Sequence record: PP925840.1
Source: Escherichia phage SholemSchwarzbard
DNA length: 64,000 nucleotides
Direction: 5' to 3' (one strand)
The notes beneath the pieces are model-generated. The model was not told the DNA's origin, made no database searches, and saw nothing but the letters and a program-made list of their open reading frames with translations. The position numbers and the translations under genes were made by a program. Numbering within the stretch: the stretch's first letter is position 1; every line of letters starts with the position of its first letter. This document shows, one piece after another, positions 29,953 to 31,246 of this stretch.

Positions 29953-30791
29953 TAGAATGCTCCTTGGAAAATATTATCACCACAAGTAGGTCTATTATAC
30001 AAATACTCTATGCCACCAGGTTTAATATAGTTCCATGTCTGAAACGGATGTGTCTGATATGGATGATATAGATGATTATAAGGATTAAACCCAGGAGTTC
30101 TCCAGGTAGTGTTCCAACGAAAAGAATCATTTTTAATCATCTTTTCAATTACATCTTTTATAGCTTTTTCACTATCAAAACTTTCTTTATTTTCCTTCGG
30201 TGAAAAAAGTTTATTTTCTACATCATTCCATGTATAAACTCGCTGCGCAGTTTTTGGAATATTGTCACGCTCTCCTCGCGCCATCCAATAAACAGGAACA
30301 TTTAATATTTCACTCGCATGATCGCAATGATGCGCGAGATCGTCAATATAACAAATTACGTTATATTTCTCTTTTGCCTTTTTGAACAACTCTTCTTTTG
30401 AAGAATCATGACCACACATCATTACTTCTGAGAAGGCACCAGGAAAAAGAGCATTCAAATTAAATTGACGATTCAACAGAGCGTCAATAGAATCACCCAA
30501 TGCTGTAACAGCTACAAAATTATAATCTTCTTTTAATTTGTTAATTACACACAGTGCATCTTTATATGGAGACAAATAACGAATAAAATCTGATCGATTA
30601 TATTTTTCAATTAACTTGACACCAAGTTCTTCATCACAATTAAAGAGTTTACCTGGAGAAATAAATTTCTCATCTTGGATCATTTTTAAAATATGTTCTA
30701 ACGGAAGATTATATTTCTGAGCAAAATAAGGAAGACCTGATTGCCAGCTTAAACATACTCCATCAATATCAGTTAAAATAGTAGGCTTCAT
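29952..30791 (-). CDS. HAD-like hydrolase candidate (279 aa), positional equivalent of T4 30.2
   Basis: N-terminal DIDGV motif resembling HAD motif I. Confidence 0.6.
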   Translation of the reverse strand: MKPTILTDIDGVCLSWQSGLPYFAQKYNLPLEHILKMIQDEKFISPGKLFNCDEELGVKLIEKYNRSDFIRYLSPYKDALCVINKLKEDYNFVAVTALGDSIDALLNRQFNLNALFPGAFSEVMMCGHDSSKEELFKKAKEKYNVICYIDDLAHHCDHASEILNVPVYWMARGERDNIPKTAQRVYTWNDVENKLFSPKENKESFDSEKAIKDVIEKMIKNDSFRWNTTWRTPGFNPYNHLYHPYQTHPFQTWNYIKPGGIEYLYNRPTCGDNIFQGAF

Positions 30792-31246
30792 AGAGAGTCT
30801 CTTAATAGGTTTAACACATCAATAAATTCAGCTTCGGTTAGTATTGTATCATCTTTTGTTAGACCACTAGCCATGCTGTGCTTCAAAACTTTTCCTTTTG
30901 AGGCTTGTAATGCATCGCGAAAGCCCTTGTTTTGGAACGCTGCTTCAAAATATGCATTTGTGTATAATTCTTTCCACGCTGGAGAGTATCTTGAAAACGG
31001 AACTCCAAGCCAGAAGAGGGTCCCACGGTCCTGAGCTCTAGCATAAGACCTTCCAGCTTGTTGGGCGGCAAGCCCGGATAACCCAAATATACGTCTTTGC
31101 TGTTCAACATTTTTCACCTTACACCCTTGGAGGAATCCTTCGAGACCTCCAAATTGAATGCCATCCATAACGAAAGGCCATTGGGCGAAATTACTTAATG
31201 CGCATGATGGCCATTTAAAATTGCTTCTTATCTCTAGCTCAGACAT
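30788..31246 (-). CDS. YbiA/NADAR-like protein (152 aa), positional equivalent of T4 30.3
   Basis: Segment LSNFAQWPFVMDGIQFGGLEGFLQGCK resembles the SNF..WP / E(H)YFQA.K signature of the DUF1768/NADAR family. Confidence 0.55.
   Translation of the reverse strand: MSELEIRSNFKWPSCALSNFAQWPFVMDGIQFGGLEGFLQGCKVKNVEQQRRIFGLSGLAAQQAGRSYARAQDRGTLFWLGVPFSRYSPAWKELYTNAYFEAAFQNKGFRDALQASKGKVLKHSMASGLTKDDTILTEAEFIDVLNLLRDSL

Follow-up and report, generated by a model that had tools for sequence, protein, structure and literature searches.

The gene and its features

We describe here a gene in a 64,000-nucleotide stretch of DNA from Escherichia phage SholemSchwarzbard (record PP925840.1), hereafter called the window. 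According to the listing of its open reading frames (ORFs), the minus strand carries at 30788..31246 an ORF that opens with ATG and encodes a protein of 152 residues. With high confidence, comparison with known sequences identifies this ORF as an intact copy of adfN (T4 gene 30.3), and its product is predicted to be an active AdfN because E36, K43, H123, and the C-terminal helix are all kept. An earlier note on this DNA had based a NADAR/YbiA-like reading on two segments of the translation, LSNFAQWPFVMDGIQFGG (residues 17-34) and LEGFLQGCK (residues 35-43). Both lie in the 152-residue ORF as claimed, and PF08010, PHROG 652, and matches in 1510 phage records exclude a chance ORF. The features of the gene are the following:

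30788..31246, minus strand: adfN (T4 gene 30.3) coding sequence, 152 residues plus stop, predicted to encode a phage-type NADAR DNA ADP-ribosylglycohydrolase
31139..31141, minus strand: GAA codon of E36, the catalytic glutamate, aligned with YbiA E48 (sequence and profile alignment to 2b3w)
31118..31120, minus strand: AAG codon of K43, the conserved ADP-ribose-contacting lysine, aligned with YbiA K55 (sequence and profile alignment to 2b3w)
30878..30880, minus strand: CAC codon of H123, located where the last β-strand ends, the hallmark histidine of the phage gp30.3 NADAR subfamily (sequence and AF2 model)
30794..30835, minus strand: residues 138-151, the C-terminal α-helix (AF2 model)
31239..31246, minus strand: overlap ATGTCTGA of the 30.3 start codon and the 30.4 stop codon (sequence and ORF coordinates)
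30788..30791, minus strand: overlap ATGA of the 30.3 stop codon and the start codon of 30.2, which encodes a HAD-like protein (sequence and ORF coordinates)

The start-stop overlap between 30.4 and 30.3 is consistent with translational coupling, and 30.4, 30.3, and 30.2 are packed as tightly as is usual for T4 early genes whose translation is coupled.

Identity with T4 gp30.3 and synteny

The window protein and T4 gp30.3 (NP_049816) have the same length and are identical at 149 of 152 positions (98%), with the three substitutions relative to T4 (R11K, I104F, and I125M, giving K11, F104, and M125 in the window protein) all being conservative. Shared by the two proteins are E36, K43, H123, the C-terminal helix, and the slot between 30.4 and 30.2, and we infer that the allele carrying these substitutions behaves like T4 AdfN. 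Beyond T4, a tblastn search located homologs of the window protein in 1510 phage records, including a 100% identical protein in Escherichia phage A6-6 and copies of at least 95% identity in more than 600 records. Among the search match rows, GenBank phage records mostly label the gene 'hypothetical protein', while a few have 'GP30.3 family protein' or 'YbiA-like'.

The surroundings agree with this identification. A 2.3-kb piece around 30.3 is 97-98% identical to many Tequatrovirus genomes, and the phage is a T4-type member of that genus, although an isolate different from T4. Moreover, the gene order alt - alt.1 - 30 - 30.1 - 30.2 - 30.3 - 30.4 matches that of the annotated T4 genome, with the difference that alt is present in two full-length copies in the window, as against one copy plus remnants in T4. 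These lie in tandem on the minus strand at 23831-25888 (685 residues) and 25892-27988 (698 residues), and both products are Alt-like ADP-ribosyltransferases (ARTs) that match PF03496 (E=2.8e-20 and E=1.8e-37, respectively). As for T4 itself, its single alt is accompanied by alt.-1 and alt.-2, short remnants of an old duplication, and RB69 has one alt. The position of T4 gene 30 (DNA ligase, 487 residues) is occupied by an ORF at 28223-29686 that likewise encodes 487 residues and is assigned as the ligase by position and length; this putative ligase gene lies about 1.1 kb downstream of 30.3, with 30.1 and 30.2 between. The setting near a ligase and an alt pair is thus as the earlier note had described it, the ligase being assigned from length and gene order.

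To gauge the state of the allele, we considered 86 loci encoding family members, comprising 80 viral contigs, five GenBank phage loci (T4 and RB69 included), and the window itself. Across these, RB69 has the sole truncated copy, with one other short sequence ending at a contig edge. RB69 gp30.3 (NP_861905) has 137 residues and ends at T137, and over residues 1-137 it is 96% identical to the window protein. However, a frameshift has cost AdfN-RB69 its C-terminal helix and the phage is DarTG1-sensitive, whereas the window copy has its full length, including the helix at residues 138-151. Separately, we noticed that several database entries for close homologs (P0007, P0014-P0018, P0056, and P0099) are short (83-126 residues) or carry an extra Pfam domain of a neighbouring gene (PF11097, PF06919, or PF06019). 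Such entries point to frameshifts, alternative start calls, or calls that fuse neighbouring genes in part of the deposited T4-like genomes, and some of them could be further natural loss-of-function adfN alleles.

Family, fold, and conserved residues

The window protein matches PF08010 (Phage_30_3) over the full model, positions 1-138 of 138, with E=1.3e-69 and 232.8 bits against a gathering score of 36 bits, and it also matches PHROG 652 (unknown function) with E=1.5e-51. To place the family, 107 homologs were collected, several of them labelled 'YbiA (DUF1768 family)' by JGI, and the 58 full-length ones were aligned (alignment A1). As many as 24 of the 58 individually match PF08719, the best with E=1.5e-7. 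A single-sequence phmmer search of the PDB with the window protein gave a noise match only (3rjz, E=0.8), while the family profile gave E. coli YbiA (2b3w) as its sole match (E=0.0037), in an alignment that pairs LSNF with FSNF, E36 with E48, and K43 with K55. The AF2 model had been proposed earlier as a further test, and it bears out the fold assignment, since it matches solely the three solved NADARs, with E. coli YbiA as the best Foldseek hit. On the basis of family-level homology and the NADAR fold, the window protein is a member of the NADAR superfamily.

The glutamate and lysine of the E-x-x-x-Q-x-x-K motif are present in the window protein as E36 and K43, and among the loci E36 is conserved in 86 of 86, K43 in 85 of 86, and H123 in 85 of 85, the latter being also invariant in alignment A1. 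In the AF2 model, the last strand spans residues 120-122 and is followed directly by H123. It is the residue at this place that defines the NADAR subfamilies (PMC11125620; PMC11543638), with histidine in phage NADARs, glutamate in the YbiA type, and aspartate in the DarG1 type (PMC11543638); the phage proteins have been named 'gp30.3 proteins' (Toxins 2024, PMC11125620). The window protein accordingly belongs to the phage gp30.3/AdfN-T4 subfamily, as seen from PF08010, the last-strand histidine, the core-only architecture with an intact C-terminal helix, and the position between 30.4 and 30.2. Membership of the DarG1 (BC4488-type) group was rejected, as the protein has His instead of Asp, is core-only at 152 residues, and has 30.2 and 30.4 as neighbours with no adjacent ART. 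Also rejected was the YbiA type, as H123 holds the position of the last-strand Glu.

Function, mechanism, and alternative explanations

Our analysis covers gene integrity, family, NADAR fold, conservation of catalytic residues, orthology to T4 gp30.3, and synteny; the enzymatic activity and anti-DarTG1 phenotype are published for the 98%-identical T4 protein. As gene, fold, catalytic residues, activity, and phenotype all appeared in print in 2023-2025, the function is already known and is no discovery, and therefore no new biology is added here. Hydrolysis of guanine-ADP-ribose by NADARs was reported by Schuller et al. (2023; PMC11543638), and purified T4 gp30.3 strips guanine-linked ADP-ribose (G-ADPr), not thymidine-linked ADP-ribose (T-ADPr), from DNA (PMC11125620). 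Johannesman et al. (Nat Commun 2025; PMC11825919) then mapped the DarTG1 resistance of T-even phages to 30.3, renamed it adfN, and found AdfN both necessary and sufficient for this resistance. In that study, T2 and T4 no longer form plaques on DarTG1 hosts once adfN is deleted, and RB69 is rescued by ectopic adfN-T4; the loss-of-function allele of RB69 stems from the insertion of a single base, through which the last helix is lost. AdfN-T4 is impaired by E36A, K43A, and C-terminal truncation. Moreover, purified AdfN de-ADP-ribosylates DNA, and AdfN neither binds DarT1 nor counters DarTG2 (PMC11825919). In a HIDEN-SEQ transposon screen (preprint), 30.3/adfN is conditionally essential on DarTG1 hosts only, and on E. 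coli K-12 that lacks DarTG1 the phage can do without the gene (PMC11825919; HIDEN-SEQ preprint). One detail of the literature stands apart: the methods of PMC11125620 list the construct as 'E. coli T4 phage NADAR (gp30.3; residues 1-208)', as against 152 residues for T4 30.3 (L001:8308-8766), a discrepancy that may reflect a tag or another phage's homolog.

For the window phage, the proposed sequence of events would begin with infection of a host that carries the DarTG1 toxin-antitoxin defence. The DarT1 toxin would ADP-ribosylate guanines of the phage DNA and block or stall replication, while AdfN would be produced from the early leftward gene block. By cleaving the guanine-ADP-ribose bond, AdfN would release the ADP-ribose and restore the DNA, and the phage could replicate. 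Such an enzyme would act as an 'orphan antitoxin', working on the lesion enzymatically rather than by binding the toxin, and would be specific for guanine-ADP-ribose, leaving the thymidine modification made by DarT2 alone.

That the ORF is adfN of a T4-type phage and encodes a core-only NADAR enzyme that counters DarTG1 by guanine-ADP-ribose hydrolysis is the best explanation and very probably the correct one. The earlier note's proposal of a NADAR/YbiA-like eraser of guanine ADP-ribosylation that counters DarT-type defence is hence well supported by the 98% identity to T4 gp30.3, that is, AdfN, and the result that the note had named as refuting it, neither a profile match nor structural similarity, is not what the searches gave; what the note guessed about function was right, although it offered the gene as a candidate and did not recognise the known T4 gene 30.3/adfN. 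Several points weigh against the explanation. PF08719, the profile suggested for checking the note's assignment, gives no match to the window protein itself by hmmscan at E≤10 (the output being PF08010 and noise), and the relationship appears instead in the 24 matching family members; a search of NCBIfam with the window protein likewise matched no model. The activity data come from the T4 protein, though none of R11K, I104F, and I125M falls at a conserved position. Additionally, T4 gp30.3 does not rescue DarT1 toxicity in cells (PMC11125620), and AdfN-T4 shows no such rescue in uninfected E. coli and only weak rescue of non-T-even phages (PMC11825919; PMC11125620). The picture of a free-standing hydrolase is therefore incomplete, and a T-even factor seems needed; indeed, full AdfN-T4 activity is reported to require a further, 'potentiating' T-even phage factor (PMC11825919).

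Other explanations can be set beside this one. The earlier note had also considered that the enzyme might mainly erase or balance ADP-ribosylation by ARTs that the phage itself encodes (ModA, ModB, and the pair of Alt paralogs some 3-7 kb from the gene), and two full-length Alt-like ARTs (PF03496) do sit in the same leftward gene block. This gains no support, because the proximity to alt is merely T4 gene order, and it is very unlikely to be the explanation. Alt and Mod enzymes modify protein arginines, which weighs against it. Beyond the T-even clade, the neighbours of gp30.3 homologs vary greatly; at 78 loci, the immediate ones form 48 unrelated clusters, among which no ART recurs as a partner. 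Furthermore, for the NADARs tested to date the substrate is ADP-ribose linked to a base (PMC11543638; PMC11125620; 2026 Toxins paper), and adfN can be dispensed with on E. coli K-12 when DarTG1 is absent (PMC11825919; HIDEN-SEQ preprint). Hardly credible is a YbiA-type housekeeping N-glycosidase that acts on riboflavin-pathway intermediates or some other small molecule and not on DNA. While YbiA ranks first in Foldseek and is the sole sequence-profile match in the PDB, and JGI attaches its name to several homologs, the subfamily-defining last-strand Glu is replaced by His in 85 of 85 homologs, and the published phylogeny puts the gp30.3 cluster nearest to DarG1-type NADARs, not YbiA (PMC11825919). 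Besides, G-ADPr on DNA is cleaved by the T4 protein, whose phenotype is specific to DarTG1 (PMC11825919; PMC11125620; HIDEN-SEQ preprint).

It is also very improbable that the window copy is decayed or inactive as in RB69. Such a natural loss-of-function allele is on record there, and some database entries of the family are short or fused, but the window ORF is full length at 152 residues with E36, K43, H123, and the C-terminal helix intact, and its product equals the phage A6-6 protein and is shared at 95% identity or more by over 600 phage records. A broader role that adds to the action on DarT1 lesions rather than excluding it, namely on guanine ADP-ribosylation of RNA or by other guanine-targeting toxins, is a possibility we regard as tentative. 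In its favour, G-ADPr on RNA is removed in vitro by T4 NADAR, albeit less efficiently than by E. coli C7 NADAR (later work), it does not matter to an enzymatic eraser, as argued in PMC11825919, which toxin set the mark, and the family is widespread, with its 1510 phage records spread across many hosts. Yet DarT1 damage is the sole target so far demonstrated in vivo, T-ADPr is not acted on (PMC11825919; PMC11125620), and in its summary table, the 2026 Toxins paper credits the NADAR and YbiA families, but not phage NADAR, with reversal of cytosine-linked ADP-ribose (C-ADPr).

With the DarTG1-countering AdfN as the preferred explanation, the window phage is predicted to be resistant on hosts that carry DarTG1, a point of relevance for phage therapy and for predicting host range. 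The function of a 'hypothetical protein' was thus read correctly from motifs alone, and the sole mechanistic question touched concerns the T-even factor required for full AdfN activity.

Neighbouring genes and other features of the region

Directly downstream of 30.3, gene 30.2 (29952-30791, minus strand) encodes a protein of 279 residues that is hypothetical in the T4 annotation and begins with HAD motif I (DIDGV). Among 14 homologs of gp30.2, the four HAD-phosphatase motifs (D8-x-D10, T96, K132, and D150-D151) are invariant or nearly so, and a variable C-terminal tail is found in the T-even-type copies only. The window gp30.2 has no Pfam match, with its relatives giving sub-threshold matches to HAD_2, NT5C, and Hydrolase only; the gp30.2 profile has no match in the PDB, and the single-sequence AF2 model is unusable (pLDDT, the predicted local distance difference test score, of 36.6). 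From its motifs, gp30.2 is probably an uncharacterised HAD-superfamily phosphatase or nucleotidase. That it is the potentiating T-even factor of AdfN, the pair forming a two-enzyme module for DNA de-ADP-ribosylation and clean-up in T-even-like phages, seems unlikely. The ATGA start-stop overlap with adfN and the conserved HAD-phosphatase motifs speak for such a partnership; against it, only 27 of 86 loci, in essence those of the T-even-like clade, have a gp30.2-like gene close to gp30.3, and the text of the HIDEN-SEQ preprint names adfN alone for DarTG1.

Similar arrangements were seen in two distant T4-like phages. In Vibrio phage QD01 (L004 4007-4961), a bona fide NT5C-family gene directly follows the gp30.3 homolog despite a different context (next to gp47/46), and in Acinetobacter phage Kimel (L003 4001-5147) it is a HAD or NT5C-type gene that does so, and a gene for a nudE-like ADP-ribose pyrophosphatase lies some 2.5 kb upstream at that locus. 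As to a general operon partner for gp30.3, this was rejected because the immediate neighbours among the 78 loci split into 48 clusters downstream and 48 upstream, and because the gp30.2-like genes counted above, those within 3.5 kb, occur at 27 of 86 loci only.

A scan of 29600-33600 for sigma-70 promoters and terminators found 17 promoter-like sites, where shuffled sequence would give 14.2±4.0, which is not above chance, and therefore no promoter is claimed. Individual sites include a near-consensus sigma-70-like one (TTGACA-18-TAAAAT, 32253-32224, minus strand) upstream of 30.7, as well as terminator-like GC-rich hairpins followed by T-runs at 32640-32661 (minus strand) and 31763-31778 (plus strand), with overall counts not above shuffled ones.

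Within adfN, an out-of-frame ORF of 75 residues (30883-31110, minus strand) is the counterpart of T4 30.3', which is annotated as an internal translation in a different frame. Its status as a real gene was rejected on conservation. Among 16 T-even-type alleles, the ATG of 30.3' is replaced (by ACG, ATT, or ATC) in eight, and amino acid identity to the window copy is 59-92% for the 30.3' frame as against 79-99% for the 30.3 frame. Moreover, the 30.3' frame carries an internal stop in RB69 and L016, and it does not look like selected coding sequence.

Comparison with other NADARs

The DarG1 NADARs (BC4488 family), which include those from Geobacter lovleyi (PDB ID: 8bat) and E. coli C7, have Asp where gp30.3 has His, and their N-terminal extension forms a DNA-binding channel, whereas AdfN-T4 is core-only. 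In addition, DarG1 is encoded beside darT1 and neutralises DarT1 in uninfected cells, while AdfN-T4 is an orphan that gives no rescue there. E. coli YbiA (PDB ID: 2b3w) and the Phytophthora nicotianae NADAR (PDB ID: 8bau), both of the PF08719 type, share just 19-20% identity with the window protein and have Glu in the last strand in place of its His; YbiA has a housekeeping role in riboflavin metabolism. AdfN-Bas32 and AdfN-Bas60, the NADARs of T5-like and Vequintavirinae phages, are like AdfN-T4 guanine-specific and counter DarTG1 (PMC11825919). However, these two belong to other NADAR clades, were independently acquired, and neutralise DarT1 without a phage context, which the T4-type protein does not (PMC11825919).
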